Below, piece by piece: positions 8,325 through 34,303 of a stretch of 64,000 nt of DNA (position 1 is the stretch's first letter; every line of letters begins with the position of its first letter). The notes under the pieces were generated by a model. It saw only the letters and a list, made by a program, of their open reading frames with translations. It made no database searches and was not told the DNA's origin. Source of the stretch: Clostridia bacterium (lineage in GTDB: Bacteria > Bacillota > Clostridia > UBA1212 > DUPL01). The position numbers were made by a program, and so were the translations under genes. The DNA is taken from assembly GCA_050951325.1 (NCBI GenBank), contig JBMNIW010000001.1, positions 256,001 through 320,000 of the forward strand, written 5' to 3'.

Positions 8325-8478
8325 AGAAAACCCTCCTTCATGAAAACAAAGGTACTTTACAATCATGTTAGATGTTTGTCAATATTGTTATACTCTTATC
8401 TAATGTAATTTTTTCTTGCCACGTACAAAAACTCATTCAGCATAATCGGTAACAGGTAAATTATGGAGGTTGTGCATA

Positions 8479-10307: not shown

Positions 10308-13355
<3,048 letters not shown>

Positions 13356-14204: not shown

Positions 14205-14301
14205 ATACGTCCTCTCCTACATAGCAGATACCATTACGTTTATTATACAATTTGTCAGCCAAAAGATAAAGGCTGCCATACAAGCAGCCATCTAAATGCA
14301 A

Positions 14302-16227
14302 TCACGCTTTATTGCTGAACAGGAAGTTAAATCTGCCATATGGTGCAGCATCACCATCCTGGTAGAAGGTCCATATTCCATTATCCATGTTGCAGTTATC
14401 CGCCCACTTGAATTGAAGATTCACTATGTCCATTGACGAAATGCCAATTTTTGAAGCGGGAACTTTCAACATAAGCTTGTTTCCTTCAACCCTCATATCA
14501 ACTTCTGCTACCTTTTCCCACTTGTTATCTCCTGCATATTTTTCCAAAACCGCCTTATTCTTTGACGGGGGAGCAGTCCTGTTTACGACAAAATCATAGC
14601 CATTCCACTTCTTTGTTTTTGAAAAACCAGTGGCAAGAAACAGCGTCATCCAGTTGTCCGTAGGGTCTGATATGTCCTCTACTGTATCTACATAAAAGTA
14701 GAAGTGCTTGTCATCCCTTGCTACTTTCATGACACTTATGTCATTTCTTCCTGTGTTGTTTTCATACTCTGATATATCAATATTTTTCCATTTGTCATAC
14801 AAGGATACATCTCTAATGCTCGTATCATTTATGAAGTCCTTGTAGACTGCTGTAGCATCATCCCATTGAGACCAGTCGCCATTTATGTCAACTGTTGTTT
14901 TCTTGCCAACATTTACCCTGCCGTTTGTTCCTTTGTATTGCCTGATAAAATTGCACATTTGCATGTAATAATTGTCCCCATAACCACCTGTCATGGGTTC
15001 TATGTCCCTGCTGTGGTCAATGTTGAAATTGTCCACAAACATGCACATATCACGAGGATCGTCCGTATATTTTCCTAATTGATTATCTTTACTCCATCCT
15101 CTGTCCGAATCCCAATTGCCTGCAATCCATTCATTCCATCCGCAGATGAATATCATAGGCGGATCCTTCTCAATTGCATATTCAAACTGTCTGGCAAAAT
15201 TGATACCGTATAGATACGAATCCTCCTCTCCTTCTATCCAATGACGGTTTCTTTTTCCATCCCAGTTTCTTGAATGATCTTTTGTCTCCCATAAATACCC
15301 ATAAACAGAGTTGAAGGTTTCACATATTTCAGCTACGGATACAGTCATCATCCATGTGTTTCCATTCTCATCTTTCATCTCCGTTGGCCAGTCTGAAAAA
15401 TCTATCCACGGAAACATGTTTTTCTTCTTGTTAAGATCATACTTAAAGGAACCATCTGGCATAACATCCAAAACTTCAAATGCATTCATGTATGAATCCT
15501 TCATAGTGAAGAATTCCTTTGCCCTTTTACTGATACTAGAATCCCTCATATCCCCTACAATTAAGGGTTTGCCGTCGTAGCAGTACCAAAGATGCTCATA
15601 CTCGGGATGTGCCATGTATATGTCATTGTATATCCTCTCTATTGTTGCTCCTGTGTTTGTATGTGTATAATAGCTTACCTTCGGAACCTTCCAGCCTTGC
15701 CTTGAGTACTCATCAAGTATCCTGAACAAGAGAAGTGATTGCTCCTCATAAATGTATGTATTTGTGGCATCTATCATGAGGTAGTCTATATCAGCCTCAA
15801 CAAACATCTGAACATGCTTTCTTATTACATAATCATCCAGCATTGTATAGTAGCTGAACAAGGGTTTTCCCCACCAATGGCTTGCTCCATACAGAGGCGA
15901 CCCTCCTGCTCTAGCCCATTCTTTCTTAGACCTAGGCGCATCAGGATTTTTCTTCAAAATTTCGGTATTGTCAAACACCTGATGCGAACCATGGGAGCCC
16001 GTCCACAAAAAATAGAATATTCCTACTTCCCGATCTTTTCTCTCTACGTCCAAAGCAACTGCTCGACCGAGGTCGTCAATACAGAAGGTTGTACCATTTA
16101 TATCAACATATTCTCCTTTGTACTTTTTCCATGTTGTAATGTCATCATAATTGTATTTGCGATTGCAGCCAAACATACTTCCCACCATAATTGTAGATAT
16201 AACGAGAAAAGCAGTTGCTTTTTTCAT
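14302..16227 (-). CDS. GH99/GH71-like putative glycoside hydrolase, lipoprotein
   Basis: Lipobox MFGC; DDLGR, GIFYFLW, HWWGKPLFSYY, DATN, GWNEW, SRDIEP; C-terminal beta domain. Confidence 0.7.
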   Translation of the reverse strand: MKKATAFLVISTIMVGSMFGCNRKYNYDDITTWKKYKGEYVDINGTTFCIDDLGRAVALDVERKDREVGIFYFLWTGSHGSHQVFDNTEILKKNPDAPRSKKEWARAGGSPLYGASHWWGKPLFSYYTMLDDYVIRKHVQMFVEADIDYLMIDATNTYIYEEQSLLLFRILDEYSRQGWKVPKVSYYTHTNTGATIERIYNDIYMAHPEYEHLWYCYDGKPLIVGDMRDSSISKRAKEFFTMKDSYMNAFEVLDVMPDGSFKYDLNKKKNMFPWIDFSDWPTEMKDENGNTWMMTVSVAEICETFNSVYGYLWETKDHSRNWDGKRNRHWIEGEEDSYLYGINFARQFEYAIEKDPPMIFICGWNEWIAGNWDSDRGWSKDNQLGKYTDDPRDMCMFVDNFNIDHSRDIEPMTGGYGDNYYMQMCNFIRQYKGTNGRVNVGKKTTVDINGDWSQWDDATAVYKDFINDTSIRDVSLYDKWKNIDISEYENNTGRNDISVMKVARDDKHFYFYVDTVEDISDPTDNWMTLFLATGFSKTKKWNGYDFVVNRTAPPSKNKAVLEKYAGDNKWEKVAEVDMRVEGNKLMLKVPASKIGISSMDIVNLQFKWADNCNMDNGIWTFYQDGDAAPYGRFNFLFSNKA

Positions 16228-17123
16228 TATTTTTTCCTCCTTTTTGCTATCACAACAAAGACCACAATTAACAAAACAGCAATAGCAGAAACAGCAGAAA
16301 TAATTACTCCTGTTGCATTCTTGTCTTTGGTCTTCTCTTTCGTAGGAGTTTTCTCTTCATCATTATCAGCAGGTTTTGGTGTTTCTTTAACTTCTTCAGT
16401 AGGTTCAGGAGTTGGCGTAACCTCAGGTTCATATAGATTAACCACCGTCATATTCTCTATAGTAAAAGAGCAGTAGTGGCCCATCATTCCAAGATTGAAC
16501 TCATACCCTTCAGTAAAATGATCGAAATCTCCAGGTTTATCACAATTGGTCAAATCCATATCCAATATTTGGACATCATTTATCTTCATGGAGAGTTTGT
16601 TGTCATCCCTGATTATCTCAAAATGAAACTTTGTGCCATTACTCATAGGGCCAAACTTGCTTGTAGCCTCCGTTTCTCCTTTGAAACTGTATATATCCTG
16701 AATCTTCTCTACACCACTCTGCTCAACAGCAATACCATAGTTTCTTGTTAGGAGTAGATGAACATATACTTCTTTGCCAGTCGCTTCATCATAAGCAGCT
16801 CCGACTTTAAAAAACGGTCCATATATGAATCCTAGTCCATCCTTGTCTTCAGCATAGAACTGGTTTATCTTAAGATCACCGGACCATACAAAACCCTTTG
16901 ACATATTAGGTATGTAGAATACAGCTTCGGAAGCAACTGTTTCATCTTCATTCCTAACAGTAACACTTTTAACTTTGTCTCCATCCATTATAACATCATA
17001 ATCCCAGTTGCCATCCTTGAAATGAACTTCAAAATCCTTGCCGATAATGTTTTCAGCATTTGCTGATACATTAAGCACAATAATTGCAAACAGTACCAAT
17101 ATGCAACATATTTTCCGCATCAT
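16227..17123 (-). CDS. Secreted beta-rich protein with Pro/Thr linker and C-terminal membrane anchor
   Basis: Signal peptide ending ANA, PEVTPTPEPTE linker, TM helix + KRRKK. Confidence 0.75.
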   Translation of the reverse strand: MMRKICCILVLFAIIVLNVSANAENIIGKDFEVHFKDGNWDYDVIMDGDKVKSVTVRNEDETVASEAVFYIPNMSKGFVWSGDLKINQFYAEDKDGLGFIYGPFFKVGAAYDEATGKEVYVHLLLTRNYGIAVEQSGVEKIQDIYSFKGETEATSKFGPMSNGTKFHFEIIRDDNKLSMKINDVQILDMDLTNCDKPGDFDHFTEGYEFNLGMMGHYCSFTIENMTVVNLYEPEVTPTPEPTEEVKETPKPADNDEEKTPTKEKTKDKNATGVIISAVSAIAVLLIVVFVVIAKRRKK

Positions 17124-17228
17124 GCAGTTACCCTCCAATCCAGAAACAGGTATGTTATATGTATAATACATTAAACGGGTGAAATGTTGTAGGTAATATA
17201 TTGTTTTCCATATGTAAATAATTGTGTT

Positions 17229-18479
17229 TTATACTTTTTTCTTTTTGATAACCATCAGAAGAACAACACAAGCAACTGCTGCTATAGCAACAATCACAAT
17301 ACCAGCTATTAAACCGACACTTCTTCTCTTGTCTTTTTCACTGCCCGTCTCTTTTGTTTGCGTGGGAATGGGAGTTGAGTCATCCTCATCGTCTGTTGGC
17401 GCAGGTGTATTCTCTGGCTCTTCAGTTGATGTCTCTTGTGGTTTTTCAATTGTAGATTTTATCACAATTTCTGCCACATCCACCTGTCCTGAGTGTCTCG
17501 TAGAAAGAGCAAGATAACCATTCACAGCTAACAGTGTGTTGGTTAAGTTTGCAATTTGCTTGCCTTCCCCATCCTTTACAACTGCCTTTTCAAAGAACTC
17601 ACTGATGGGGTCCCTATATATTGAGTTATCTCCTTCATCTGCATGAATGGACTTGGAATTTTCGTACTTTGTAACACCACTATATTCTACGCTACATATC
17701 AACTTTTCATTGGCATATATGGAAATCGAAGATGCCTTGTCCACTATCTTAAGATTGAAATAGTCAAAGACATTAAAATCCACATTGAAGTCATTACTCC
17801 ATACACCAAGACCGCCATCATATCTTTCATCATGCAGCCTAATATATATTCTCAGAAGATTCTGGCCATCCAATTTTAATGGTACAATACCAAGACCGCT
17901 GCCACCCAGGTAATTGTAGGTATAAAAATCAAAATCTCCGTCATCCTCCAATTTCGCCTTGTATTCAGGATCATTTAGCCTGTTTGTATTGTAGTCAGTC
18001 TCGAAGTATGTATACTCAAATAGACGATACTCACCATCCTGATAACCACAGTATCGTCTTGAGTAGTAACTCTGTCCTGGCACAAGGTTTGTTCCACGAA
18101 CAAAAATGCCGTACAACGCGTATATATCCTTTCCAACGTCCCCTACTTTAAGTCTGTATTCAACTTCATAGGATTCATCATTTACAGCATCAAAAGGCTG
18201 AGAAAACACAGCTTGACCGTATCCATAAAACCTAAATGCTTTGCTGCCCTTGTCCTCAACGACAGTAATGCTGCCGCCCCACTCAGTATCCAAAGCAGCT
18301 TGTTTAATAAGCCACATTTCCTCAAAGGCAGTAGCCCCCATGCCATCCAACGAGTCGCCGACTTTGTACTCGCCAGAGGAAAAATCCTCTTTGTACTCAT
18401 CAAAACTACTTGCAGCAGCATTTAGAGAAAAAACTGCAGCAATCACAAAAAACAGTACACCAGTCAATGTCTTTCTCAC
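17229..18479 (-). CDS. Secreted beta-rich protein with C-terminal membrane anchor (distant member of the locus domain family)
   Basis: Signal peptide, TEEPENTPAPT linker, TM + KKKK; GIFVRG/LKIVD/KDGEG/GYLAL motifs echo 25326..26210. Confidence 0.7.
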   Translation of the reverse strand: MRKTLTGVLFFVIAAVFSLNAAASSFDEYKEDFSSGEYKVGDSLDGMGATAFEEMWLIKQAALDTEWGGSITVVEDKGSKAFRFYGYGQAVFSQPFDAVNDESYEVEYRLKVGDVGKDIYALYGIFVRGTNLVPGQSYYSRRYCGYQDGEYRLFEYTYFETDYNTNRLNDPEYKAKLEDDGDFDFYTYNYLGGSGLGIVPLKLDGQNLLRIYIRLHDERYDGGLGVWSNDFNVDFNVFDYFNLKIVDKASSISIYANEKLICSVEYSGVTKYENSKSIHADEGDNSIYRDPISEFFEKAVVKDGEGKQIANLTNTLLAVNGYLALSTRHSGQVDVAEIVIKSTIEKPQETSTEEPENTPAPTDDEDDSTPIPTQTKETGSEKDKRRSVGLIAGIVIVAIAAVACVVLLMVIKKKKV

Positions 18480-18482
18480 TCT

Positions 18483-20996
18483 TCATCCCTCCTTTTTGTT
18501 TATTCCAATTGCCTTTTTTGCCAAAAATATCACCAAACCGACAAGTATTAAAGCAACAGACCAAACTGCAATCATTACGTAATCCACACTCTTTTTGGAA
18601 GGAAGTTTTCTAAAGTTTTCATCAGTGTTGAATACAAAACAAAACCTCCCACCAGGTGCCACATCGCCAAACTGGTAAAAATCCATAATATCACCATCGG
18701 ACTGCATGTTGTCAGACCATTTGAAGTTAAATGCAATATTCTTCGCTTTGCCGCTTATGCCAAGATACTCTTTTGGCACCTCTATCTGCATAACATTTCC
18801 ACTTACAGTGTACCTGGCCTCGCCGACCTTATCCCAATCCCAACCGCCTTTGCTCCTTTCAACAATTACTTTATCCACTGTTGCATTCTCTCTGTTTATA
18901 CAAAACTCGAAACCTTCCCAATTACCATTACCCTCAAATGTTGTATCAATAAACAGTCTCATCCAGGCTTTATCAGTGTACGGTGTAATATCATCCTTTG
19001 TTTGTGCAAAGAAATATATGTTGTTCTCATCGTACGCAACTTTTGCAAGGACAAAATCATTCCTCATGGTATCATTGGCATCAAACACAGCACCTCTAAA
19101 GCCACCTGCTTCCCTATATGGCGTGGAGCCAGTGTAGTGATGGTATTCAGGAAGAACATCCTTCCACTGTTCCACTCCTTTCGATATGTCAATCTTTTTG
19201 TATGCGTAGATCGAATCGGGCACGCTCATTCCTTTAAACTTTCTAATATTGCTTACCATTTGATAGTAATAGTGGTCTTTCAAGTCACCTTTTGTCATTT
19301 CTATATCACGACTGTTTTCATCATCAAATTGATCAACAAAGGCATTAATCAATTTCACATGGCCTGTGTCAAATTCAGCATATCTATGTACGGTCCACTC
19401 ATTCCAACCCACAATGAATACAATATCAGGGTCAACCTCATGCGCATAATCCCACTGTTCCTGAAAATTCAGACCTTGTAGTTTTGTCTTAGAGATGATG
19501 TTGCCTTCAGTAAAATCATCATCTCCAATCCATCCATTTTTATATGTCCAGCTTCTACCTGTAGGTCTTAGTTTCGGGTCAGTCTGATTCATAGCAGAAA
19601 AACCAGGTAACTCCCTGTTGCCATTTTGGGCAACACTTACTGGCACATACTCTACAGAGCCGTCCTTCCTTACTCCAAATCTACCCTGTGGATGAATTCT
19701 CAGCCACTGCCAGTATCCTATCTCTTCATTATGCTTGTCTGCATAATCGCCACTGTTTGCCCTGAATGTAAACGAATCAAGAAGATATTTGTGTTTTTCA
19801 TTATCCAATATGTTCTTGTTTGCCATGATTAATGGTTTTCCGTCCAAATAAAACCATAGATCCTGGTACAACCCACGAGCGAATATGTCTCTGTACAACA
19901 TGTCAAGCTGTGTACTTAATTCATATTGGCTCCTTGAGTTTAAAAAGAATGCAAACTGCGGAACTTTAACTCCTTCCGACTTGGCCTTCATGAATGCATC
20001 CACAAGGCACAGAAACTGTGCTCTCCAGAGATACGTTGCGTTTGTGCAGTCAAATACAATGAAGTCCACACCTGCATCAGCAAGAAGTTCTGCATGCTTT
20101 CTATAAACAAAAGCATCTGTTCCGGAGTAGTATCCGTACAAAGGCTCATTCCAGTAATATATCACTCTGCTTTGGGACTCAATAGTCGACCACAGTCTAT
20201 GAATTGGATCAAGTCTTGCATCCGGGTATTCTGTCATCAACTTCTGCAGGCTGTATGGAGTTATTGAATTGGAATACTCTTCCTCAAACCATATTGTGTA
20301 GAATATGCCAACCTTTTTATCCTTTAAGTTACCCACATCCTTGTAGGCAGGAAGTATTCTTCCAAGCCCGTCTACTGCAGCCCAGGTATCAGGTCTGACC
20401 TTGTACTCTCTATCATCAACAGGATTGAAATAGTCAAACTCAAGTATGGGCTCGTCACTCTTGTTCTCCGATATCTCACCAAGTTTCTTTCCATTGCCGC
20501 TAATAAATCTTACATACGCAGCAACACCAATAGAAGGCTCTGCCCTGTCATTGTAATAGACTCTTACATTATTGATACTCTTCTCCACTATTTTGATATT
20601 TACCGCTTTACCAGATGCCTTGTTTAAAAGAAGTATGTACTCACCTTTTGGCAGGGTGTCGAACTTGTAAGTTATTTTATTGCCAAAACCTTCAAATGAC
20701 TTCTTGCGAACAGGTTCCTTTCTCAATGTTTTGGCATAAAACTCATCCCACTCATAAATTGACACTGTAAGTTTTCCCTTGCCGTGCTTTCCAGCATTAA
20801 CCTCTATGGTTACTTCGTCAAAATCCTCCGTTGCATTAAACTGTATAGCCAGGTTGTCATGGGAATACAACCTCATTTCATTTACCAGTTTCTCCTTATC
20901 AAACAAGGCAACTTTTTCAGACGCACCATTTGCCACTATTATCCCAAAACCCAGCATTGCTGAAATAATAATTAGACATGCTTTTACAGCCTTCAT
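18483..20996 (-). CDS. GH99/GH71-like putative glycoside hydrolase with extra N-terminal domain and C-terminal TM anchor
   Basis: DGLGR, GIFYTIW, YYWNEPLYGYY, RKHAELLADAGVDF, DCTN, GWNEW, SRDIEM; ATG overlaps fucosidase TGA. Confidence 0.72.
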   Translation of the reverse strand: MKAVKACLIIISAMLGFGIIVANGASEKVALFDKEKLVNEMRLYSHDNLAIQFNATEDFDEVTIEVNAGKHGKGKLTVSIYEWDEFYAKTLRKEPVRKKSFEGFGNKITYKFDTLPKGEYILLLNKASGKAVNIKIVEKSINNVRVYYNDRAEPSIGVAAYVRFISGNGKKLGEISENKSDEPILEFDYFNPVDDREYKVRPDTWAAVDGLGRILPAYKDVGNLKDKKVGIFYTIWFEEEYSNSITPYSLQKLMTEYPDARLDPIHRLWSTIESQSRVIYYWNEPLYGYYSGTDAFVYRKHAELLADAGVDFIVFDCTNATYLWRAQFLCLVDAFMKAKSEGVKVPQFAFFLNSRSQYELSTQLDMLYRDIFARGLYQDLWFYLDGKPLIMANKNILDNEKHKYLLDSFTFRANSGDYADKHNEEIGYWQWLRIHPQGRFGVRKDGSVEYVPVSVAQNGNRELPGFSAMNQTDPKLRPTGRSWTYKNGWIGDDDFTEGNIISKTKLQGLNFQEQWDYAHEVDPDIVFIVGWNEWTVHRYAEFDTGHVKLINAFVDQFDDENSRDIEMTKGDLKDHYYYQMVSNIRKFKGMSVPDSIYAYKKIDISKGVEQWKDVLPEYHHYTGSTPYREAGGFRGAVFDANDTMRNDFVLAKVAYDENNIYFFAQTKDDITPYTDKAWMRLFIDTTFEGNGNWEGFEFCINRENATVDKVIVERSKGGWDWDKVGEARYTVSGNVMQIEVPKEYLGISGKAKNIAFNFKWSDNMQSDGDIMDFYQFGDVAPGGRFCFVFNTDENFRKLPSKKSVDYVMIAVWSVALILVGLVIFLAKKAIGINKKEG

Positions 20997-21970
20997 TGCC
21001 AACCTCCGTTCATTCTTGCCAAATCTTTCAAAACCTGCATTGCAGGTGCTGGAAACCTTCCCAAATGATCAGGCCCAATGTTCAATAAATAATTTGCACC
21101 AATCCTTTTAAGATGTTCTTTTGTTTTAAATACTTCCTCTGCACTTTTCCAGTTGTTATCGTAATATTTAAAACCCCAGGAATCATTCAAGGTTGCTGGA
21201 CTTTCATACAAAACATCCAAAACCTTATCTATAGGTATCTCATTGTCTCCTGCTGATATATAGTCGTAGATGCCATTGCCAAGTCTAGAGTTTACAAGAC
21301 AATCTGGCTGATAATGTTTTACCATGCTGTATAGTTCAAGACTTTTTTCTTTCGATATTACAAGCGGTGTATCAAACCAGATGAGGAACAGCTCTCCATA
21401 GTTTGTGAGTATTTCTTTAAGCTGAGGTTTTATCTTCTCTTCATAGCAAATATCGTAGCATTTGTTTTCATTATCAGGATAATCCCAGTCATTCGTCCAG
21501 GAAGTAGTCCCTTCTAGATTTAAAAAAGGATATCTGTACCCACCGCCATGCGGATGGGACCAATCGATATCCTGTGAATAGTAAAGACCGAGTTTAATGC
21601 CGTGTTTGTAACAGGCTTCAGCAAGTTCACCTACAACATCTCGTCCAAAAGGTGTCATGTCCACCACATTGAATTTTGTTGCTTTGGAATGAAACATAGC
21701 AAATCCATCATGGTGTTTTGAAGTGAAGACCATGTACTTCATGCCCGCTGCTTTTGCAAGTCTTGCATACTCTTCTGCGTTAAAATATATTGGGTTGAAC
21801 ACTTTTACAAGTTCGTGGTATTCCTTGTTAGGTATGCGGAAATATGCCTGTGTCCATTCAGCGATATACGGCATTCTTTGCCCTTTCCACTCCCCACCCA
21901 ATAAAGAATACAATCCAAAATGAATCATAAGACCAAACTGAGCTTCCTTAAAATGTAACCTAACATCCAT
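20993..21970 (-). CDS. Alpha-L-fucosidase, GH29 (catalytic domain only)
   Basis: FGLMIHFGLYS, TSKHHDGF, GLYYS, IWFD nucleophile, LLNIGP. Confidence 0.92.
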   Translation of the reverse strand: MDVRLHFKEAQFGLMIHFGLYSLLGGEWKGQRMPYIAEWTQAYFRIPNKEYHELVKVFNPIYFNAEEYARLAKAAGMKYMVFTSKHHDGFAMFHSKATKFNVVDMTPFGRDVVGELAEACYKHGIKLGLYYSQDIDWSHPHGGGYRYPFLNLEGTTSWTNDWDYPDNENKCYDICYEEKIKPQLKEILTNYGELFLIWFDTPLVISKEKSLELYSMVKHYQPDCLVNSRLGNGIYDYISAGDNEIPIDKVLDVLYESPATLNDSWGFKYYDNNWKSAEEVFKTKEHLKRIGANYLLNIGPDHLGRFPAPAMQVLKDLARMNGGWQ

Positions 21971-22057
21971 AAAAGCACCTATCTTTCGCACCTTGTATAC
22001 TGTTAGTAATTATATTACTTGTAGGAAAATATTGCAATTAGAACAGTAAAAAGCGGG

Positions 22058-24092
22058 CCCTAGTTTAACAGTTGATATTTCAATTTAAATTGCATAAATG
22101 CCCTAAATAACGCCAACTTGGCGCCTTTTTTTATGTCAAATAATTTTCATCTTTCTGTTGTATAATGTAGTAGAACATGGTATAATATAACTGATTACTA
22201 TCAGGAGGTGCTGTTGGATGTTTTTGAAAGTTACCAAACTGAAAAACGGCAAAATCAATTTAAGTTTTGTTGAAGGTTATCGTGACCCTGCAACCAAAAA
22301 AGTCAAACATAAGCTGGTTGAGAATTTGGGCTATCTGGATGAATATCTTGATCGTTACGAGGATCCAATAGCGCATTTTAAAGAGATTGCACGCATTCGC
22401 ACCCAGGAACTTAACGAGGAAAAAAGTAAAAAGGAAATATTTCTGGGTACTATTTCTGAAGACGAGACCATGGAAGTGAACGAAGATTCCTTGCAGCACA
22501 TGGGATTCCTTCCTCTAAGCTCAATTTACCATCAGTTAAAAATCGACAAATTCATTATCAATCGTCAACGAAGCCTGTCCATGGATTATTCGCTAAACGA
22601 TGTTATGCAATTGTTGGTGTATACAAGGATTCTATCTCCAGGGTCCAAGATAGACAGTTACAGACAAAAAGAACGTATGGCTAAAGATTTCAAATGTGAT
22701 TGGTATGATGTTTATCGTGCATTGGACTATTTTGCATCTTTTCGAGATGACCTTCTCCTCCATCTTCACGAGCAGGTCAGAATCAACTATCAACGTAAAA
22801 CTGATGTTGGCTTTTATGATGTCACAAACTTTTACTTTGAGATTGATAAAGAGGATGAATTTCGTCGCAAGGGTTATTGCAAGCACAATACACGAAATCC
22901 GCTAGTGCAAATGGGACTGCTTCTTGATTCTGATGCTATTCCAATAGCGTATCAGTTATTTAAAGGGAACACCCATGACAGTCAGACAATGATGCCGCTG
23001 TTGCATAAAATACGTGCCAGTTATGGACTGGGTAGAATAATTACCGTAGCAGACAAAGGATTGAATAGCGGAGACAACATCGCATTTCTCATGGCCAAAG
23101 GAGATGGATTCATATTCTCTCAGAAAATACGGGGAGCTTCCAAAGATCTGCAAGACTATGTTTTTGATCAGTCAGGATATGTAGATGTGCACGGGATAGT
23201 AAAACATGCTGATGCATGGAACGAAAGGAATGGCAACCAGGACAGCGGGGTGTTCCGCATGAAATCGCGACTATATCCACAGGAATTCTGGGTAACTCAT
23301 GCAGATGATGTCAAACGCAAAATACCGTTGGATGTAAAACAGATTGTATGTTACAACGAGCTTTATGCAAGACGCCAGAAGCACAAGAGGGATGAACTTA
23401 TTGCCAAGGCCAAAAGAATCATAGAAAATCCCAAACGCTATGATAAGAGTGAGGCAGGTGGGGCATTACGATATGTAAAAAACATTGAATATGACCCGGA
23501 AACTGGTGAGTACATTAAAACCAGGCGTTTACCCAGCCTGGATGAAGACAGGATTGCGGAAGACGAAAAGTATGATGGCTACTATGCAATCATTACAAGC
23601 GAACTGGATATGCCAGACCATGATGTCGTCAAAGCATATCACGGTCTTTGGGAGATAGAACATAGTTTCAGGATTACTAAAAGCGATATTGAAGCCAGAC
23701 CTGTTAATGTTACACTCGAGCAAAGGATTGATGCCCACTTTCTTACATGTTTCATAGCCTTGCTAGTCTTAAGACTTTTGTGTAAACGACTGGACGGAAA
23801 GTATGCCCCTGAACAGGTAATCAAATCTTTGAGAAATTATCAGGTTTGTTGGATTAAGGACAATGTATACAAGGCAACCTACTATGACCAAATACTAAAA
23901 GATTTGGGTGAGGCTTTGAATTTGAGACTGGATAGACGCTTCCTAAAAGCAGGCGACATCAGGCAACTAATTGCAGATACCAAAAAGTGACCATAAATAC
24001 ACAACATTTTTCTGAAATAAACAAAACCTCACAAACCCACTAATTACAAGGGTTTATGGAGGTTTTTTTTAATTCTAACTGTTAAACTCAAG
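22058..24092 (+). mobile_element. IS1634-family element (copy A)
   Basis: Imperfect 16-bp TIRs CCCTAGTTTAACAGTT / AACTGTTAAACTCAAG around transposase. Confidence 0.8.
22218..23990 (+). CDS. IS1634-family DDE transposase
   Basis: FYDVTNFYF, VQMGL, VADKGL, DGYYAIITS, LWEIEHSFRITK, HFLTCFIAL. Confidence 0.92.
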   Translation: MFLKVTKLKNGKINLSFVEGYRDPATKKVKHKLVENLGYLDEYLDRYEDPIAHFKEIARIRTQELNEEKSKKEIFLGTISEDETMEVNEDSLQHMGFLPLSSIYHQLKIDKFIINRQRSLSMDYSLNDVMQLLVYTRILSPGSKIDSYRQKERMAKDFKCDWYDVYRALDYFASFRDDLLLHLHEQVRINYQRKTDVGFYDVTNFYFEIDKEDEFRRKGYCKHNTRNPLVQMGLLLDSDAIPIAYQLFKGNTHDSQTMMPLLHKIRASYGLGRIITVADKGLNSGDNIAFLMAKGDGFIFSQKIRGASKDLQDYVFDQSGYVDVHGIVKHADAWNERNGNQDSGVFRMKSRLYPQEFWVTHADDVKRKIPLDVKQIVCYNELYARRQKHKRDELIAKAKRIIENPKRYDKSEAGGALRYVKNIEYDPETGEYIKTRRLPSLDEDRIAEDEKYDGYYAIITSELDMPDHDVVKAYHGLWEIEHSFRITKSDIEARPVNVTLEQRIDAHFLTCFIALLVLRLLCKRLDGKYAPEQVIKSLRNYQVCWIKDNVYKATYYDQILKDLGEALNLRLDRRFLKAGDIRQLIADTKK

Positions 24093-24221
24093 ATTATAAA
24101 TTACATTGCTTTATATTACAGGTTCATTCTTGTCAATTTGCCACTTTTTCGGTCTTTTCTTGTTGTTTCAGCTTAATCAATTATTGAACCAACCTGGTTA
24201 ATCTGTATAATAATATCAGGA

Positions 24222-25286
24222 GTGATGAAGTTGATTTTAAACAAAAACCTAGCAAGATACCTGCAGCCATTAACTGAAGAAGAATTAATATACAAAGAAT
24301 ATTATGAACTTAAGCAAAAGAACGCACCTCTTGAGGAATTCTTTGAATCCATTGCAAACAGGAATGATATAAGGAAAGACTTGTTCATAAAAGAATTGGA
24401 AGGCTCCGGATACTACGAAAAGGTAACGGATATATTCTATCCTTTCGACTACGACATAGTTGCAGCAAGACACACAAGATATCATCCCCTATTCTTACAC
24501 AGACATCCTTTTTATGAGATTGTCTATCAGATTGAGGGTACCTGCACAAATACAATAAACAACATAACAGTAGAGATGACGGAAGGGGACATATGTATAA
24601 TACCTCCAGGACCTGTTCATACCGTTGGTGTTTTTGACAACAGCATAATAGTTAACATACTTGTAAAACCGGAATCAATCACAAACTCGTTACACGAACT
24701 TCTTGCAAGAAACAATATTATAACCAAGTTCTTTGAGGGTAATGAGTTCACATACTCTTACAACTATGCACTGTTCAGGGTAACAAACGACATAGAGTTG
24801 AAAGACATAATGGAGTCGCTGATACTTGAATGTTTCAACAAGGATATTCATACGCTGCCCATGAGAAAGACTCTTCTAATGCTGGCATTCAATCACTTGC
24901 TGAGATACCAGCTTAACAACATGGAGCTTTCCGAGAACAAAAACAAACTGCACACAAAGGTACAAAGCATATGCCAGTATCTCAAGACAAGTTACCAGAC
25001 AACAAACTTAAATGACACTGCAAGGCAGTTCAATTACTCTCCCACATATCTTTGCAAATTAATTAGAAACAGTACCGGACATACCTTCAACGACATATTA
25101 ACCAGGATAAGAATAACCAAAGCTTGCGATCTCCTTGCCACAACAAAAAAGGGCATTAACGATATTGCAGAACTTGTAGGATACGAATCTCCTGAATACT
25201 TCAACAAAGTCTTCAAAAAATACATGGGTGTGTCCGCAACAGAATACAGGAAGGATTACAACATGTCGGTAATAAAGAATATGTAG
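24222..25286 (+). CDS. AraC-family transcriptional regulator
   Basis: HRHPFYEI cupin motif; IAELVGYESPEYFNKVFKK. Confidence 0.93.
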   Translation: MMKLILNKNLARYLQPLTEEELIYKEYYELKQKNAPLEEFFESIANRNDIRKDLFIKELEGSGYYEKVTDIFYPFDYDIVAARHTRYHPLFLHRHPFYEIVYQIEGTCTNTINNITVEMTEGDICIIPPGPVHTVGVFDNSIIVNILVKPESITNSLHELLARNNIITKFFEGNEFTYSYNYALFRVTNDIELKDIMESLILECFNKDIHTLPMRKTLLMLAFNHLLRYQLNNMELSENKNKLHTKVQSICQYLKTSYQTTNLNDTARQFNYSPTYLCKLIRNSTGHTFNDILTRIRITKACDLLATTKKGINDIAELVGYESPEYFNKVFKKYMGVSATEYRKDYNMSVIKNM

Positions 25287-25291
25287 ACAAC

Positions 25292-25316
25292 AAAGGCTGG
25301 CGATTGCCAGCCTTTT
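25292..25316. terminator. Bidirectional intrinsic terminator
   Basis: AAAGGCTGGC-gatt-GCCAGCCTTT. Confidence 0.8.
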
Positions 25317-25325
25317 ACGTCCTAT

Positions 25326-26210
25326 CTATCTGTATTTAATAACTACCTCGTCAACAATTGTCTTTGCAAAGTGGTTGAACAGTTTCAAAACACCCGTTTG
25401 GTCTTTTAGATTGTTTGCTGCCTTGTATATTTCATTGCCCTCGCCATCGTAAACAATTAGTTCGTCACCAACCATGTCAACGTGCATGAATAGTTCATCA
25501 TCTGCATAGTAGTATACAAGCCCGTTTGCATCAACGATTGTAAGTTTGTGTGTTTCCTTGAAACTAACCGGAACGTTTATCTTGCATGCTCCCTTTGGCC
25601 AGTGTGCTGGTACCCCATGATAGAGAACCAGTTCATTACTCTCAGTAACCGATAGATACAAACCACTATCCAAATCAGAAGGCTTGTAATCTTCGCCGCC
25701 AGGCTCATACACCCTTATACCTACAATGCATCCCATCCATACTTCCTGGTGAGAATCAGGATATGAGGTTTGAAAAGTTATGTGGTACTCATACTGGCTA
25801 ATAGTCTCATCAAAGTCACAGTATACCCCAGGCGCATAAGTTTGGGCTGCATCGAACCATTCATCAGTAGTTCCAATGTAGCTGAGGTAGAGCCTGTCAT
25901 CTATGATGCCATAATATTTTTGGTATCTCACAATGGCTTCAGGGCTGTACTGACCATCTTCAAAGTTATCTTCGAAAACCACGATAGCATCTTCTTGAGG
26001 TTTTCCAAGCTGGCTTTCATCAAGCTTTGGTAAACTTTCTGTAGGTTCGGGAGTCTCTTCAGGCTCCTTGGTGGTTGTAACTTCTTTAGTTTCAGAAGGA
26101 GTATTCTGCGGCTCCTTCGTTGTACCGGGTGTGTTTTGCTTGTTGCAGCTAATAAACACAAGAGACACCATTCCAATCAATATTAAAAGCAAAATACGTT
26201 TTATCCTCAT
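25326..26210 (-). CDS. Lipoprotein with uncharacterised locus-specific beta domain
   Basis: Lipobox FISC, Thr/Pro linker; WMGCIVGIRV, SGLYL, YHG..WPKGA, NNLKDQTG, FNH motifs shared with 28059, 31311, 32945. Confidence 0.8.
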   Translation of the reverse strand: MRIKRILLLILIGMVSLVFISCNKQNTPGTTKEPQNTPSETKEVTTTKEPEETPEPTESLPKLDESQLGKPQEDAIVVFEDNFEDGQYSPEAIVRYQKYYGIIDDRLYLSYIGTTDEWFDAAQTYAPGVYCDFDETISQYEYHITFQTSYPDSHQEVWMGCIVGIRVYEPGGEDYKPSDLDSGLYLSVTESNELVLYHGVPAHWPKGACKINVPVSFKETHKLTIVDANGLVYYYADDELFMHVDMVGDELIVYDGEGNEIYKAANNLKDQTGVLKLFNHFAKTIVDEVVIKYR

Positions 26211-26227
26211 ATTTGTTTTTACCTCCT

Positions 26228-28057
26228 TCAGTTCACGAAAACATAGTTAAGTCTTCCGTAAGGTGCGGTATCGCCATCGAGATAGAAGGACCAGAAATCT
26301 CCTTCTCCCTGATAGTTGTCGCTCCACTTGAACTCAATGTTTATTTCACTTCCAATGTCCAAACCAAGTGCATTCTTTGGAATTGAGAACATAAGCTTGT
26401 TACCTTCTGCCTTGTACTCAATTTCGGATACCTTTTCCCAATCCCAACCGCCTTTGCATTTCTCAACAACAGTTTTAGTATTGGAAAGAATCTGACGATT
26501 TATAACAAAGTCATATCCGTACCAATTGTCTTCGTTGTTTCCCGTTTTAATAAACAGGTTCATCCAATGTTCGTCCGTATACGGACTCAAAGGCTCTTTG
26601 GTTTCAACATAGAAATATACATTCTCACCATCATGTGTAACCTTGCTAAGTACAATATCGTTTCTACCCGTTTCATTGACATATACAATTTTTCCAAATC
26701 CTCTTGCATTTCTATGCATGGTGTCTCCAGCATAATCAACGTATGAAGTCCCAATATCGTCCCACTGGGAAAAATCCCCCTTTATGTCCACACTTGAGTG
26801 TGTAATTTCCTTGTTTTCCTCAAGCTCCTTGTTATTTACCTGCGCAGCACCCTTGAACTTTCGGATATAGTAGATTAGCTGCATATAGTAGTTGTCACCG
26901 TATCCGCCTTTCATGGGCTGAATATCTCTTGAGTAATTGGCAGTGGCTGCATCAACAAAAATAGCCACATCATTGTACCTCTGTTCGGTGACATCGTACC
27001 ACTCATTAAGTCTATAAGCTATCCACTCATTCCATCCTGTTACAAAGATAATATCAGGATCCACGCTTATAGCGTATTCGAACTGTTCAGCAAAGTTGTA
27101 TCCATGCAAGTACGCATCTTCGGATTTATCTTCCTTGCCATTATGGAAGCTTCTGCTTCTAACAGTTTCGTCACCGTGGAAAGCTCCGTTTGAGAACGCA
27201 AGCGAACCTGTATGCTGTGCCACCGATACACTAATTATCGTAGTACCAAGCTCCTTGCCAAAAAGATGCTGGGGACGTTCAAAAGCCATCCAGGGAAAAC
27301 CGTCTTCCCTTTTCGCTTCCCTTGGCCATTGTGAATACCTGATTGTAAAGAACTCTTTAAATTCGTCGGTAAAGGCAGGGTCATCAGTCTTGCCCAGAAT
27401 CAAAGGCTTTCCATCCAATTCAAACCACAAATGGCTGTACTCACTATGAGCTTTATATATCTCATTGAAAATCTCCATCATGTGGGTTCCCGGATTATGC
27501 TTTGTAACAAATGCCACCTTCGGTACCTTATAACCTTGCTTATAAAATTCGTCCAACACTTCGAGCAAGACAAGTACATGTTCTTTGTATGTTGCGCCAT
27601 TTGACGAATCAAGTATGAGAAAATCAACACCTGCATCCGTTAAAAGCATGACATCCCTTTGCTTTACCCATTTGTCGGATCCTCTGAAATAGCCAAATAT
27701 GGATTCTCCCCACCAGTGAATTGTATTAACAGCGCCTCCACCTGCATTAATCCAGCGCTCGTCGGATTTAAAAGCTTCTGGGTCCTTCTCAAGAATTTTT
27801 GAAATATCATAAGGTCCTTGTGTTGTTTTTCCACCGTGGTTGATAAAATAGAACATGCCAACCAGTTTGTCCTTGTTGTATTCAGGTATATCCTTGTCCG
27901 CAGGCATGCCCAACACTCTGCCAAGATCGTCAACTCCGGCGTAAGCCAGCATACCACCATCACTTTTATTATCTATCAAATCATTATCCTCCTTGTTGCA
28001 TCCAATCAAGGCAGCCAATAATATAAATGCTGCTATAAACGTTACAATTCTTTTCAT
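26228..28057 (-). CDS. GH99/GH71-like putative glycoside hydrolase, lipoprotein
   Basis: Lipobox LIGC; DDLGR, HWWGESIFGYF, DAGVDF, DSSN, GWNEW, SRDIQP; paralog of 14302 and 18483. Confidence 0.72.
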   Translation of the reverse strand: MKRIVTFIAAFILLAALIGCNKEDNDLIDNKSDGGMLAYAGVDDLGRVLGMPADKDIPEYNKDKLVGMFYFINHGGKTTQGPYDISKILEKDPEAFKSDERWINAGGGAVNTIHWWGESIFGYFRGSDKWVKQRDVMLLTDAGVDFLILDSSNGATYKEHVLVLLEVLDEFYKQGYKVPKVAFVTKHNPGTHMMEIFNEIYKAHSEYSHLWFELDGKPLILGKTDDPAFTDEFKEFFTIRYSQWPREAKREDGFPWMAFERPQHLFGKELGTTIISVSVAQHTGSLAFSNGAFHGDETVRSRSFHNGKEDKSEDAYLHGYNFAEQFEYAISVDPDIIFVTGWNEWIAYRLNEWYDVTEQRYNDVAIFVDAATANYSRDIQPMKGGYGDNYYMQLIYYIRKFKGAAQVNNKELEENKEITHSSVDIKGDFSQWDDIGTSYVDYAGDTMHRNARGFGKIVYVNETGRNDIVLSKVTHDGENVYFYVETKEPLSPYTDEHWMNLFIKTGNNEDNWYGYDFVINRQILSNTKTVVEKCKGGWDWEKVSEIEYKAEGNKLMFSIPKNALGLDIGSEINIEFKWSDNYQGEGDFWSFYLDGDTAPYGRLNYVFVN

Positions 28058-28058
28058 C

Positions 28059-28949
28059 CTAACACCTTTCACTTACATTTTTTAAACGCATGAATACTGC
28101 AAAAAGTACAAAAGCTGCAATTATCATGGACAAAACAGCCATGAAAGAGTTGTCACCTGTTTCAGGATTTCCAGGCTCCGGCTCCGGAGCAGTAGCCACA
28201 TTGTAGATTTCAATGGAGTCAACTATGGTTTTTGTACTGTGATTGAATATCTTGAAATATCCAACCTGGTCTTTCAAATTGTTGTCGGCTTCATAGATAA
28301 CATTGCTGTCCTTGTCATAAGCAACAAGTTTGTCTCCTGAAATTTTTATGCTCAAGAACAACACTCTGGTTTCTTCTGGTGTATCCATGTAATACGAGAT
28401 TATATCATTGTCATCAACAATGTAAAGGGTATTGGTCTCTGCAAAGTTAGCCGGAATGTCAACAGTAAAAGCTCCTCCAGGCCAGCCACCGCCTCCATGA
28501 TAGACAACAGCCTTGTTGGTGTGGGCAATTCCTATATACAGTCCAGAGTTGGAATCCGCTGGCTTGAAATTGTTTTTGTCGTTGCCTGCAACCCTAATAC
28601 CCACCATGCATGAATACCAAAGGTCATTTCTGAAACCGTTACTCTTGAATTTGACAACATACTCATATTTCTCATGCTCCTCGTCAAACTCAAACTTTTC
28701 GTTGGCAATATATGCTTCAGCAGCATCTCCCCAGTCATTGTCGTTGGTGTTGAAGCCCATATAAAGCTGTTCATTCTCAATCTTGTGCCAAGCATTAAAG
28801 CGGAAAATAGCTTTAGGATTTGCCTGGTTGCCTGAAAAGTCATCAACATATATCAAATCTTTGGATGATGATGCTGTCACACCATTTGTAAATGCAAAAA
28901 ACATAACAAGAACAAGCATATAAAAAACAATATTTTTAGATTTAAACAT
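28059..28949 (-). CDS. Sortase-type (NPETG) surface protein with locus-specific beta domain
   Basis: Signal peptide; PEPEPG-NPETGD + hydrophobic helix + basic residues. Confidence 0.8.
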   Translation of the reverse strand: MFKSKNIVFYMLVLVMFFAFTNGVTASSSKDLIYVDDFSGNQANPKAIFRFNAWHKIENEQLYMGFNTNDNDWGDAAEAYIANEKFEFDEEHEKYEYVVKFKSNGFRNDLWYSCMVGIRVAGNDKNNFKPADSNSGLYIGIAHTNKAVVYHGGGGWPGGAFTVDIPANFAETNTLYIVDDNDIISYYMDTPEETRVLFLSIKISGDKLVAYDKDSNVIYEADNNLKDQVGYFKIFNHSTKTIVDSIEIYNVATAPEPEPGNPETGDNSFMAVLSMIIAAFVLFAVFMRLKNVSERC

Positions 28950-28972
28950 ATCTATTTCTCCCCTTTTGAATA

Positions 28973-29224: not shown

Positions 29225-31194
29225 CGATAGTTTGACACTTGCTCACATATCCGATTTTCAGAAAAGCTCATAATATGAGCTTTTTTTATATATTTTTTGT
29301 CAAATTTCCCTAGTTAGCTATTGCGTAATGTCTCGTAATGTGATATAATATCAGGTATTGGAGGTGTCATTATGGCTATTAGAGTATCAATATCTAAATC
29401 AAAAAATGCCAAGTCATACTATCTGATAGAAGATGTTGTGAAAAATGGAAAGAGAACAACGCAGATAAGAGAAAAACTTGGCACTCATGAGGAACTGCTT
29501 AAAGAACTTAACGGACAAGATCCGTATGAATGGGCTAAGAAATACGCCGAGGAACTAAATAGAAAAGAAAAAGAAAACGAACAGGAAAAGAATATTATCG
29601 TTAAGTATTCCCCCACCAAGCAAATTATGAAGAATAAACAGAATACATTTAATGGCGGTTACCTGTTCTTGCAGAAAATCTATTATGAACTGGGTTTGCA
29701 TAAGATTTGCGATGAAATATCTGAAAAATACAAGTTTGAATATGACTTGAACTCAATACTCTCGAGACTACTATACAGTAGAATAATATACCCTTCCTCA
29801 AAACTATCTACGTATAAATTATCAAAAAGATTTTTTGAGCAGCCCAATTTTGACTTGCATCATATATACCGGGCCTTAAGTGTTTTGGCGGAAGAAAATG
29901 ATTTCATACAAGCCACAATCTATGAGAACAGTAAAAAAATATGCAATAGAAATACCAAAATACTATACTACGACTGTACAAACTATTATTTTGAAATTGA
30001 TTACGAGGAAGATGACAAGAGGTATGGTTATGGGAAGGGTCATAAGCCAAATCCCATAGTGCAAATGGGACTGTTCATGGACGGAAGCGGCATCCCTCTT
30101 GCTTTTAGCATCAATAGAGGTAATGCCAATGAACAAACAACAATGGTACCACTGGAAGAAAAGATACTATCTGACTTTAATCTGGCAAAATTTATTGTTT
30201 GTACAGATGCCGGATTGTCATCAACAGCAAACCGGAAATTCAACGACAAAGGCGACAGGGCTTTTATCACAACCCAGTCTGTAAAAAAACTAAAAGAACA
30301 CTTGAAAAACTGGGCCTTGAAACCGACGGGATGGAGTTTGCCAAATGACAGTACAGAATATGACATCAGCAAACTTGATGAAGAAGAATACAAGGACAAG
30401 GTTTTTTACAAAGATCGTTGGATTAAGGAAGACGGTTTGGAACAGAAACTAATAGTGACATTTTCATTCAAGTACAGAAAATATCAACAGCAAAAGCGCC
30501 AAGTTCATATCGAAAAGGCATTAAGCTTGCTTGAAACAGAACCGCAAAAATCAAACAAGAAGCGAAACAGCGACTACAAACGTTTTATCAAAAGCGTTAA
30601 TTGCACAGAAAGTGGAGAGATAGCCGATAATGAAGTTTATTATATTGACGAAGAACTTATTGCCAACGAGCAGAAATATGATGGGTTCTATGCGGTATGC
30701 ACAAACCTTGATGATGATGCTTCAGAAATTGCAAAAATCAACCATAGACGCTGGGAAATAGAAGAATGTTTTAGAATAATGAAAAGTGAGTTCAAAGCCA
30801 GACCTGTTCATTTGAAAGACAAGGATAGGATACTTGCACATTTTGCTACATGTTTTATGGCATTAATTCTGTATAGAATACTCGAGAAAAGACTTGAAGA
30901 AAAATATACATGCTGTGAAATTATTCAGTGTTTGAGAGATATGAATTTTACAGACGAAAATGGGTATGGATACAAACCTTGTTATACAAGAACCGACTTG
31001 ACTGATGATTTGCATAACGTTTTCGGATTCAGGACTGACTATGAAATAATTACAGAGAAAGAGATGAAAAAAATATTCAAGCTCACTAAAAAGTAAAAAC
31101 ATTACGCATTTTTATTGACACATCAAGAAGTCTACAAACCCACTAAATACAAGGGTTTGTAGACTTTTATCTTTCTACAAGTGTCAAAGATGAG
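29225..31194 (+). mobile_element. IS1634-family element (copy B)
   Basis: TIRs CGATAGTTTGACACTTG / CAAGTGTCAAAGATGAG; bounded exactly by the 252-bp repeat. Confidence 0.88.
29372..31096 (+). CDS. IS1634-family DDE transposase
   Basis: YYDCTNYYF, VQMGL, CTDAGL, DGFYAVCTN, RWEIEECFRIMK; TTGCGT-17-TATAAT promoter at 29321-29349. Confidence 0.92.
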   Translation: MAIRVSISKSKNAKSYYLIEDVVKNGKRTTQIREKLGTHEELLKELNGQDPYEWAKKYAEELNRKEKENEQEKNIIVKYSPTKQIMKNKQNTFNGGYLFLQKIYYELGLHKICDEISEKYKFEYDLNSILSRLLYSRIIYPSSKLSTYKLSKRFFEQPNFDLHHIYRALSVLAEENDFIQATIYENSKKICNRNTKILYYDCTNYYFEIDYEEDDKRYGYGKGHKPNPIVQMGLFMDGSGIPLAFSINRGNANEQTTMVPLEEKILSDFNLAKFIVCTDAGLSSTANRKFNDKGDRAFITTQSVKKLKEHLKNWALKPTGWSLPNDSTEYDISKLDEEEYKDKVFYKDRWIKEDGLEQKLIVTFSFKYRKYQQQKRQVHIEKALSLLETEPQKSNKKRNSDYKRFIKSVNCTESGEIADNEVYYIDEELIANEQKYDGFYAVCTNLDDDASEIAKINHRRWEIEECFRIMKSEFKARPVHLKDKDRILAHFATCFMALILYRILEKRLEEKYTCCEIIQCLRDMNFTDENGYGYKPCYTRTDLTDDLHNVFGFRTDYEIITEKEMKKIFKLTKK

Positions 31195-34240: not shown

Positions 34241-34303
34241 ATCCAAATCTCTCCTTTTTATCTGGTAAGCAAAGATTATCAAAAAGATTTCTATGTGTCT
34301 TCT

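Follow-up and report, generated by a model that had tools for sequence, protein, structure and literature searches.

Glycoside hydrolase (GH) families 99 and 71 are the closest described relatives of the proteins treated here, namely P0001, P0002 and P0003, three predicted surface proteins encoded in a stretch of 64,000 nucleotides from the genome of a Clostridia bacterium (assembly GCA_050951325.1, contig JBMNIW010000001.1, positions 256,001 to 320,000; the whole stretch is referred to as the window). In GH99, the motif EW[H/G]E is reported to be conserved in every domain of life, and H[I/L]EPY is described as the substrate-binding motif (PMC11025385). The first Glu of the GH99 dyad is described as acting on the sugar 2-OH and the second as the acid (PMC6001782). 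GH71 is reported to have an equivalent DxxE dyad in which both residues matter, replacement D265A lowering the activity of AnGH71C about 6,000-fold and E268A about 15,000-fold (PMC12394665). GH195, which comprises the endo C6-sulfate alpha-1,3-mannanase domain of PbSulf1-GH195 and OpGH195, was described from Polaribacter and Ochrovirga; according to its authors, it acts in endo mode, is secreted via the type IX secretion system (T9SS) and has a distant relationship to GH99 (Microbiome 2026; PMC13063451).

P0001, P0002 and P0003 probably form part of a third branch of the GH99/GH71 clan, so far uncharacterised and connected to the two known families by homology and fold. The initial annotation had proposed a GH99/GH71-like family that is unclassified and has changed catalytic machinery; judged by Pfam, NCBIfam, sequence, fold and literature, this proposal has good support within the reach of sequence and fold. 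Our search of the literature found no study of the family and no activity for it, and GH195 was the sole newly named GH99-related family that emerged. We consider it probable, with ample room for doubt, that the three proteins are surface members (two lipoproteins, one membrane-anchored protein) of a very large uncharacterised family of endo-glycanases that has a displaced proton donor, is accompanied by lectin partners and is under the control of AraC-type regulators.

The three paralogous genes

The genes and the positions of their motifs are as follows (aa, amino acids).

14302..16227, minus strand: P0001, 641 aa, lipoprotein type, TIM barrel and C-terminal beta domain; GWNEWIA at 15121-15141, FVD at 15031-15039, SRDIE at 14998-15012
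18483..20996, minus strand: P0002, 837 aa from ATG, with signal peptide, N-terminal module, barrel, beta domain and C-terminal membrane anchor; GWNEWTV at 19389-19409
26228..28057, minus strand: P0003, 609 aa from Met6, lipoprotein type, the protein chosen for modelling; GWNEWIA at 27017-27037, FVD at 26951-26959, SRDIQ at 26918-26932

The longest open reading frame (ORF) of P0002 (18483-21002) encodes 839 aa from a TTG, and that of P0003 (26228-28072) 614 aa from a GTG. The ATG at 20996, which is preceded by GGAGG and overlaps the stop codon of the adjoining GH29 gene as ATGA, is the likelier start of P0002. For P0003, Met6 at 28057, which is also the end coordinate in the initial annotation, is the likelier start because a 609-aa database twin and the Atlas record begin there.

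Aligned over the whole common length, P0002 and P0003 are 31% and 42% identical to P0001, respectively. The three proteins are homologous and not similar by chance, because a family profile built from an alignment of 52 sequences (A2) detects each of them in the genome at E-values (E) ≤1e-170. Pairwise alignment likewise recovers the common motifs from which the three had been recognized as paralogs, i.e., in the order P0001, P0002, P0003, the DxLGR motif (DDLGR, DGLGR, DDLGR), the DAGVDF-like segment (EADIDY, DAGVDF, DAGVDF), GWNEW (GWNEWIA, GWNEWTV, GWNEWIA), FVD followed by SRDI(E/Q) (SRDIE, SRDIE, SRDIQ), and APxGR near the C-terminus (APYGR, APGGR, APYGR). A further motif, W-W-x-P/S-xxGY, is present as HWWGKPLFSYY, YYWNEPLYGYY and HWWGESIFGYF, its 'W-W' and 'GY' parts holding only approximately. 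P0001 and P0003 possess N-terminal signal peptides ending in Cys, and P0002 has a signal peptide and, at its C-terminus, a hydrophobic anchor with basic residues behind it; these two lipoprotein-type signal peptides and the one anchor fit the predicted surface location. The N-terminal extra module of P0002 comprises about 165 aa and yielded no convincing family, the only Pfam match being DUF2141 at E 0.018 and the top Atlas match (0.90) being family-less.

Relationship to GH99 and GH71

P0001, P0002 and P0003 have no Pfam match at E≤1 and no NCBIfam match, and a single-sequence search of the PDB with P0003 gave nothing at E≤10. Used against the PDB, the A2 profile retrieved GH99 structures only, namely BtGH99 (4acz; E 6.6e-8), BxGH99 (7e-7) and MANEA (5e-4). 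Sub-threshold matches to PF16317 were obtained for 21 of the 52 A2 members (best E 1.6e-7), and none of 20 own-genome matches reaches the gathering threshold of that Pfam family (33 bits). Since true GH99 genes were absent at E≤1e-20 from 301 genomes of the same phylum, the comparators for hhalign were drawn from Bacteroidia genomes; with the two bona fide GH99 proteins chosen (PF16317 E 1e-140 to 1e-147), A2 aligned at 98.0% probability and E 2.8e-13 over 290 columns, in the same register as in the PDB profile alignment.

The AlphaFold2 model of P0003 (predicted local distance difference test score, pLDDT, 91.5; predicted template-modelling score 0.90) contains the TIM barrel that the initial annotation had presupposed (approximately residues 41-411), followed by a beta domain (approximately residues 430-614). 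Foldseek ranked GH99 top (3.7e-6) and GH71 second (1.1e-5). With VIA-align, the model was superimposed on GH99 (4ad1) with a Z-score (Z) of 19.4 over 273 aa (root mean square deviation, rmsd, 4.5), on MANEA with Z 18.7-19.1, on GH71 with Z 15.1-16.4 and on unrelated barrels with Z of at most 12.7. Kinship with GH99 and GH71, which had been suggested from motifs, is thus borne out by profiles and by fold. A search independent of Foldseek added 5ngw ('Glycoside hydrolase-like protein'; Z 17.8, 253 residues, rmsd 3.8), a structure for which the literature search turned up no paper; despite its structural similarity it was not matched by the A2 profile at E≤10. No solved structure closer than GH99 was found in a PDB copy extending to April 2026. 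The C-terminal beta domain of P0003 resembles the carbohydrate-binding module (CBM) CBM74 of Sas6 (Z 12.2, 172 aa).

The family shares with GH99 the (beta/alpha)8 barrel (Z 18.7-19.4 over about 270 residues), the motif G-Y-(Y/S)-S-x-D-x-x-(V/I)-(I/R)-K-H after strand 2, the motif (S/G)-(F/W)-N-E-W and, within the latter, the first catalytic Glu. It differs from GH99 in that Ala, Val or another non-acidic residue stands in place of the second Glu of EW[H/G]E, in that HIEPY is not kept, and in scores that stay below the Pfam cut-off. Specific to the family when compared with GH99 are five invariant Asp residues, a hairpin of beta strands and the FVD strand that come after NEW, and about 200 aa that make up the C-terminal beta domain. 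With GH71 (AnGH71C, 9fnf; Agn1, 8yfh) it has in common the barrel clan (Z 15-16) and, going by the published GH71 description, a probable layout of a barrel with C-terminal beta-sandwich and the position of the dyad on the same strand end (PMC12394665). However, GH71 has D-x-x-E with both residues catalytic whereas the family has E-x-x-A, and for the C-terminal domain of the family CBM74 of Sas6 is a better structural match than the sandwich of GH71. Three other family assignments were considered and rejected: the GH71 Pfam family (PF03659) has no match in the three proteins or the 52 relatives, Glyco_tran_WbsX (PF14307) matched a single one of these 52 (E 0.0017), and DUF5010 (PF16402), an automatic Atlas cluster label, has no match in the own genome.

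Conservation around the catalytic motif

Residue numbers refer to P0003, and conservation was counted in 267 relatives; the pattern in 42 long paralogs of the own genome is the same. In both profile alignments (PDB profile search and hhalign), GWNEW-x-A is aligned with the (S/T)FNEWHEG segment of GH99. Glu349, the Glu of NEW, is kept in 263 relatives and in all 42 paralogs. By contrast with GH99, position 352, which corresponds to the second Glu of the dyad, is Ala in 258 relatives and neither Asp nor Glu in any relative or paralog. The lack of this second Glu, first noticed in the three window proteins against a two-Glu NEWxE motif of GH99 that was correctly cited (EW[H/G]E in PMC11025385), is therefore a property of the whole sample. 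Near-invariant acidic residues are Asp150 (262 of 267), Asp155 (261), Asp374 (265), Asp383 (265) and Asp393 (266), and Asn158, Arg382 and Lys407 are likewise near-invariant. HIEPY of GH99 corresponds to 'FYTN' in the family consensus and to 'FVTKHN' in P0003. The Gln of SRDIQ in P0003 had been taken as a meaningful difference, a view that we do not maintain: Gln occupies this site in 64 of the relatives, and the variation suggests that the Glu/Gln of SRDI(E/Q) is probably not catalytic.

In the P0003 model, NEW ends one barrel strand, a hairpin follows, and FVD forms the next strand. Given this order in a TIM barrel, Asp374 should sit beside Glu349 at the barrel rim; Asp155 and Asp383 should also be near Glu349, all three being placed by secondary-structure order alone.

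Distribution, modules and expansion

More than 4,947 relatives were found in a word-indexed search, and an exhaustive phmmer search with P0001 as query returned, from 1.84 billion cluster representatives, 2,429 matches at E≤1e-3, of which 862 were at E≤1e-30. At least 607 matching stretches were present in a scan of species-representative genomes, with hosts including Clostridia, Paenibacillus, Cohnella, Planctomycetota, Verrucomicrobiota, Acidobacteriota, Kiritimatiellales, Armatimonadota, Chloroflexota and Bacteroidota; among sampled Bacteroidia, 4 of 401 genomes contain the family. Recognised accessory modules occur in 25 of 44 long homologs (dockerin in nine, CBM6/35 in seven, F5/8-type C or NedA-like in six, Cu_amine_oxidN1 in five, and single cases of a CBM13-like module, a GDSL esterase and a T9SS tail). 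As predicted from sequence, these modules point to secreted polysaccharide-degrading enzymes. A sulfatase fusion was found in none of the 44 homologs, nor was there a sulfatase link in three Bacteroidia loci.

A more distant relative from Bacteroidia genome G613 (L109:1173-4175, minus strand) is a 1000-aa T9SS protein in which a SASA-type carbohydrate esterase is combined with a GH99-like barrel and CBM6. It matches A2 at E 3.8e-29 and has kept NEW (as NEWTG) and S-x-D-x-EPM. Its barrel is intermediate between GH99 and the P0001-P0003 family, and its gene adjoins one for a hybrid two-component regulator.

Within the genome that contains the window (3.08 Mb, 12 contigs), A2 gave 58 six-frame matches and 56 at the level of ORFs; 42 of the latter have a length of 500 aa or more, score above 400 bits and are spread over 39 places. 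The three paralogs of the initial annotation are thus in place but represent only three of about 42 long ones. Arithmetic from ORF lengths puts the coding sequence in the family at about 90 kb; for comparison, the genome has 2 GH29, 7 sulfatase and 10 GH78-like matches. A few of the paralogs are without a signal peptide, at least 22 of the 42 have a hydrophobic C-terminal segment, and 16 have a P0002-like N-terminal extension of 176-270 aa; barrel-only proteins are represented by three shorter lipoproteins. In the same order, 27 of 29 genomes have matches at E≤1e-30 (1 to 29 each).

A FastTree tree was calculated from 129 sequences (the 42 own paralogs and 87 sequences from the 79 best public loci) and midpoint-rooted; in this biased sample of loci, P0001 and P0003 fall together in one Clostridia-rich clade, P0002 in a separate clade holding most of the N-terminally extended, anchored paralogs, and sequences from other phyla between the own-genome clades. 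Because of this clade separation, we regard P0001, P0002 and P0003 as old subfamily members and not as recent local duplicates.

Operons, lectin-fold proteins and regulators of the window

The genes next to those of the three paralogs are listed below (IS, insertion sequence; HTH, helix-turn-helix; ConA, concanavalin A).

10308..13334, minus strand: GH2 LacZ-type beta-galactosidase, 1008 aa
13356..14204, minus strand: AraC-family regulator (cupin and HTH)
16227..17171, minus strand: P0004, anchored secreted protein, one of 11 related genes adjoining family paralogs in the genome
17229..18479, minus strand: P0005, anchored secreted protein without assigned family, weakly similar to the P0004-like group
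20993..21991, minus strand: GH29 alpha-L-fucosidase without signal peptide, its stop overlapping the P0002 start (ATGA)
22218..23990, plus strand: IS transposase (DDE_Tnp_1) between the two operons
24222..25286, plus strand: AraC-family regulator (cupin and HTH)
25326..26210, minus strand: P0006, lipoprotein with lectin-fold (ConA-like) domain, P0007 paralog
28059..28949, minus strand: P0007, anchored lectin-fold protein
29372..31096, plus strand: another IS transposase from this group, located between P0007 and P0277
31311..32828, plus strand: P0277, AraC-type regulator containing a domain homologous to P0007 (residues 30-244; 34% identity, E 1e-33)
32945..34282, minus strand: P0278, secreted P0007 paralog (78% identical) with C-terminal extension

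Operon 1 consists of the genes for GH29, P0002, P0005, P0004 and P0001 and is followed by those for an AraC regulator and the GH2 beta-galactosidase; operon 2 comprises P0007, P0003 and P0006. GH29 is translationally coupled to P0002, with GH2 in the same locus, and both GH29 genes of the genome adjoin family members. Among 277 ORFs located within three genes of the 56 family matches AraC regulators form one cluster (23 members) and P0004-like anchored proteins another (11 members), one of the latter weakly matching 3keto-disac_hyd/DUF1080 (1.9e-4). The word-indexed search returned few relatives for P0004 (one) and P0007 (three), so that the alignments of both are based on own-genome paralogs.

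P0006 and P0007 are 38% identical and have about a dozen relatives in the genome. The model of P0007 (pLDDT 85) shows a ConA-like lectin fold, with the carbohydrate-recognition domain of the L-type lectin ERGIC-53 (Z 16.7), YesU-like 1oq1 (16.6), the DUF1080 protein 3hbk (14.8) and GH16 (about 14) as structural neighbours. P0277, in which no signal peptide, membrane segment or export signal was seen, probably acts as sensor and regulator of the P0007-P0003-P0006 operon, from which it is now separated by an IS element. The shared domain suggests that one ligand-binding module may serve both for capture at the surface and for sensing in the cytoplasm.

A second AraC-cluster gene of the genome (C8:185967-187094) shows the same similarity to the P0007-type domain. 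The two transposases of the window, which lie between the glycan operons and their regulators, are members of a group of four in the genome. Elsewhere in the genome (C11:58426-59649, C12:775376-776227 and others), genes for GFO/IDH/MocA oxidoreductases (three), xylose-isomerase-like TIM proteins (two) and DUF1080-like proteins are found near family paralogs, and the same oxidoreductase/isomerase-like/DUF1080-like set is near family genes in the Planctomycetota loci L042, L050 and L065. We take this set to resemble an oxidative pathway of 3-keto-glycoside cleavage. Elsewhere in the window, ORF 5926-7230 (minus strand, 434 aa) encodes an exporter-type ATP-binding cassette (ABC) protein which is apparently truncated in its ATPase domain (ABC_tran positions 1-65 of 137), and ORF 7227-8366 (minus strand) an ArsR-type HTH protein of 379 aa.

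Gene neighbourhoods in other genomes

A GH78 rhamnosidase gene adjoins the family gene in 5 of 17 loci from other genomes (three Paenibacillus, one Cohnella, one Bryobacteraceae) and is also present in one of the three Bacteroidia loci, there together with genes for an aldolase, a GntR regulator and a xylose-isomerase-like protein. The GH78 pairing is thus seen in three independent lineages. Other members of the 17-locus set have a sulfatase together with a BNR protein, GH2, acetyl esterase, SusD, melibiase or glucuronyl esterase as neighbours, SusD being found in the Bacteroidia loci as well. Heteroglycans containing rhamnose, and those containing fucose and galactose, are the best leads as to substrates.

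In three loci of Paenibacillus and Cohnella (L005, L008 and L019), the family gene is preceded by a gene for a conserved DUF5722 protein of 1,220-1,320 aa (E 1e-143 to 1e-150), a domain on which nothing was found in the literature. The GH78-like gene lies downstream of the family gene in L005 and L008 and upstream of the DUF5722 gene in L019; each of the three loci continues with genes for a GntR/LacI regulator and an ABC solute-binding protein.

Habitat and transcription

DNA near-identical to that of the window is present in bioreactor, sludge and anaerobic-digester metagenomes of many studies. In metatranscriptome libraries from four digester runs, there are contigs covering P0001, P0004, P0005, P0002 and GH29, one of them (3,191 nt) extending over 14110-17282; as carry-over of DNA is possible, they are weak support for transcription. 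The region 25352-29000 (P0006-P0003-P0007) has almost no cover by RNA-library contigs in the four runs, which is uninformative with respect to expression of the operon.

Two contigs of run X16 join position 15142 (P0001) to 27082/27084 (P0003) near GWNEW, the shorter side amounting to 22-24 letters. Most likely, this junction is an assembly chimera or stems from another paralog or strain, and does not reflect a real deletion. A contig of run X15 has an 18-nt in-frame insertion at 16332 in the P0004 gene, which is probably strain variation in a linker rich in Pro, Thr and Glu.

Proposed function and alternative explanations

Taking these data together, we propose that the barrel enzymes at the cell surface would cut polysaccharides outside the cell into oligosaccharides while lectin-fold partners would hold the glycan at the surface, and that cytoplasmic exo-glycosidases such as GH29 and GH2 of the locus would complete the breakdown. 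AraC-type regulators may induce each paralog, one of them with the same lectin domain as a probable ligand sensor. With respect to catalysis, Glu349 of NEW, the counterpart of the first carboxylate in ExxE of GH99 and DxxE of GH71, may have kept its catalytic role, and the function of proton donor may have passed from the dyad to a different invariant acid, for which Asp374 of FVD at the end of the next strand is the best candidate, with Asp155 and Asp383 as alternatives. Hydrolysis, endo action and the roles of individual residues, like the substrates, are what we infer from this ensemble of homology, architecture and gene context.

Several observations weigh against this proposal. The general acid that GH99 and GH71 are described to need is missing, which makes loss of catalysis a real possibility. 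The alignment of L109, the distant Bacteroidia relative, is without the FVD strand; hence, Asp374 is not universal beyond the core family, and its assignment as the acid is not secure. Neighbourhoods vary by lineage and therefore indicate no single substrate. Finally, no gene for a sugar importer is present in the two operons of the window. As a system, the window loci are analogous to the polysaccharide utilization loci (PULs) of Bacteroidota, with which they would share an endo-acting enzyme and glycan-binding proteins at the surface as well as a regulator dedicated to each locus; the window loci differ in being of Gram-positive type, with lipoproteins and C-terminal anchors and with AraC one-component regulators, in having no SusC/D, and in that no adjacent importer was seen in the window.

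One alternative is the assignment of P0001-P0003 to an already named CAZy family, whose known make-up would then include the unusual motif. The most plausible candidate is GH195, an endo-alpha-1,3-mannanase family acting on partly desulfated diatom mannan. Like GH195, which is described as endo-acting, secreted and of distant GH99 kinship (PMC13063451), the P0001-P0003 family is distantly GH99-like, as the sub-threshold PF16317 matches in 21 of 52 members indicate, and has Bacteroidota members with T9SS tails. We nevertheless think this assignment unlikely. The comparison is one of descriptions only (PMC13063451), and on these terms the family differs in having no sulfatase fusion among the 44 long homologs and no sulfatase neighbour in the three Bacteroidia loci; moreover, it occurs in only 4 of the 401 sampled Bacteroidia genomes, and other GH99-like groups could be GH195 instead, such as WbsX/GH99-like proteins of about 410 aa or the SASA-fused L109. 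Somewhat more doubtful still is that the proteins are non-catalytic pseudo-enzymes which descend from a GH99-like hydrolase and serve as adhesins or in glycan capture. The family-wide loss of the dyad acid and the dozens of surface-anchored copies would be in line with this idea, as would the fact that GH99 E-to-Q variants still bind substrate according to the titles of PDB entries. Yet six acidic residues along with Arg382, Lys407 and others are near-invariant across phyla, which would be unusual for a pure binder. In addition, the proteins themselves carry CBMs and dockerins, which are accessories of enzymes, and are already adjoined by separate lectin-fold partners.

A change of chemistry on the same barrel would dispense with a second dyad carboxylate: the proteins might be transglycosylases, substrate-assisted hydrolases (acting, e.g., on 2-acetamido or uronic sugars) or lyases. 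GH99 is described to use neighbouring-group participation by the sugar 2-OH and GH71 classical inversion (PMC12394665, PMC6001782), so that, on these accounts, the scaffold tolerates changes in mechanism, and the conserved residues Arg307, Arg382, Lys222 and Lys407 could bind an anionic substrate. On the other hand, no GH88 or GH105 gene was seen in the scanned loci, the neighbourhoods give no specific hint at uronates or a lyase, and the idea is purely inferential; we consider it improbable, the least probable of the alternatives discussed. We favour surface endo-glycanases with a displaced proton donor. A more far-reaching version of this proposal is possible, and we put it forward tentatively, as something we would not yet expect to hold: in an entire order of Clostridia from digesters and gut, the third GH99/GH71 branch, with its relocated proton donor, might have become the main machinery by which glycans are degraded at the surface, with some forty diversified paralogs per genome, every one of them having as partners a lectin-fold capture protein and an AraC regulator able to reuse the lectin domain as sensor. 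Such a system would be a Gram-positive counterpart of PULs built on one enzyme family.

Implications

If the proteins are active glycanases, they represent a large blind spot in the annotation of carbohydrate-active enzymes. The family comprises at least 2,429 clusters at 50% identity, distributed over Bacillota, Planctomycetota, Verrucomicrobiota, Acidobacteriota, Bacteroidota and other phyla, and the putative glycanase that dominates in some lineages would escape notice when digesters, rumen, gut and soil are surveyed by metagenomics; in the genome studied here, its roughly 42 copies compare with far smaller numbers of GH29, GH78-like and sulfatase genes. The family would also provide a third mechanistic solution on the GH99/GH71 scaffold, beside the retaining mechanism with epoxide intermediate and the classical inverting one. 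Beyond the three genes with which the initial annotation was concerned, the larger story lies in the genome- and order-wide expansion of the family together with regulators and lectin-fold partners. The link between lectin partner and AraC sensor suggests how Gram-positive anaerobes may wire glycan sensing to their surface enzymes.

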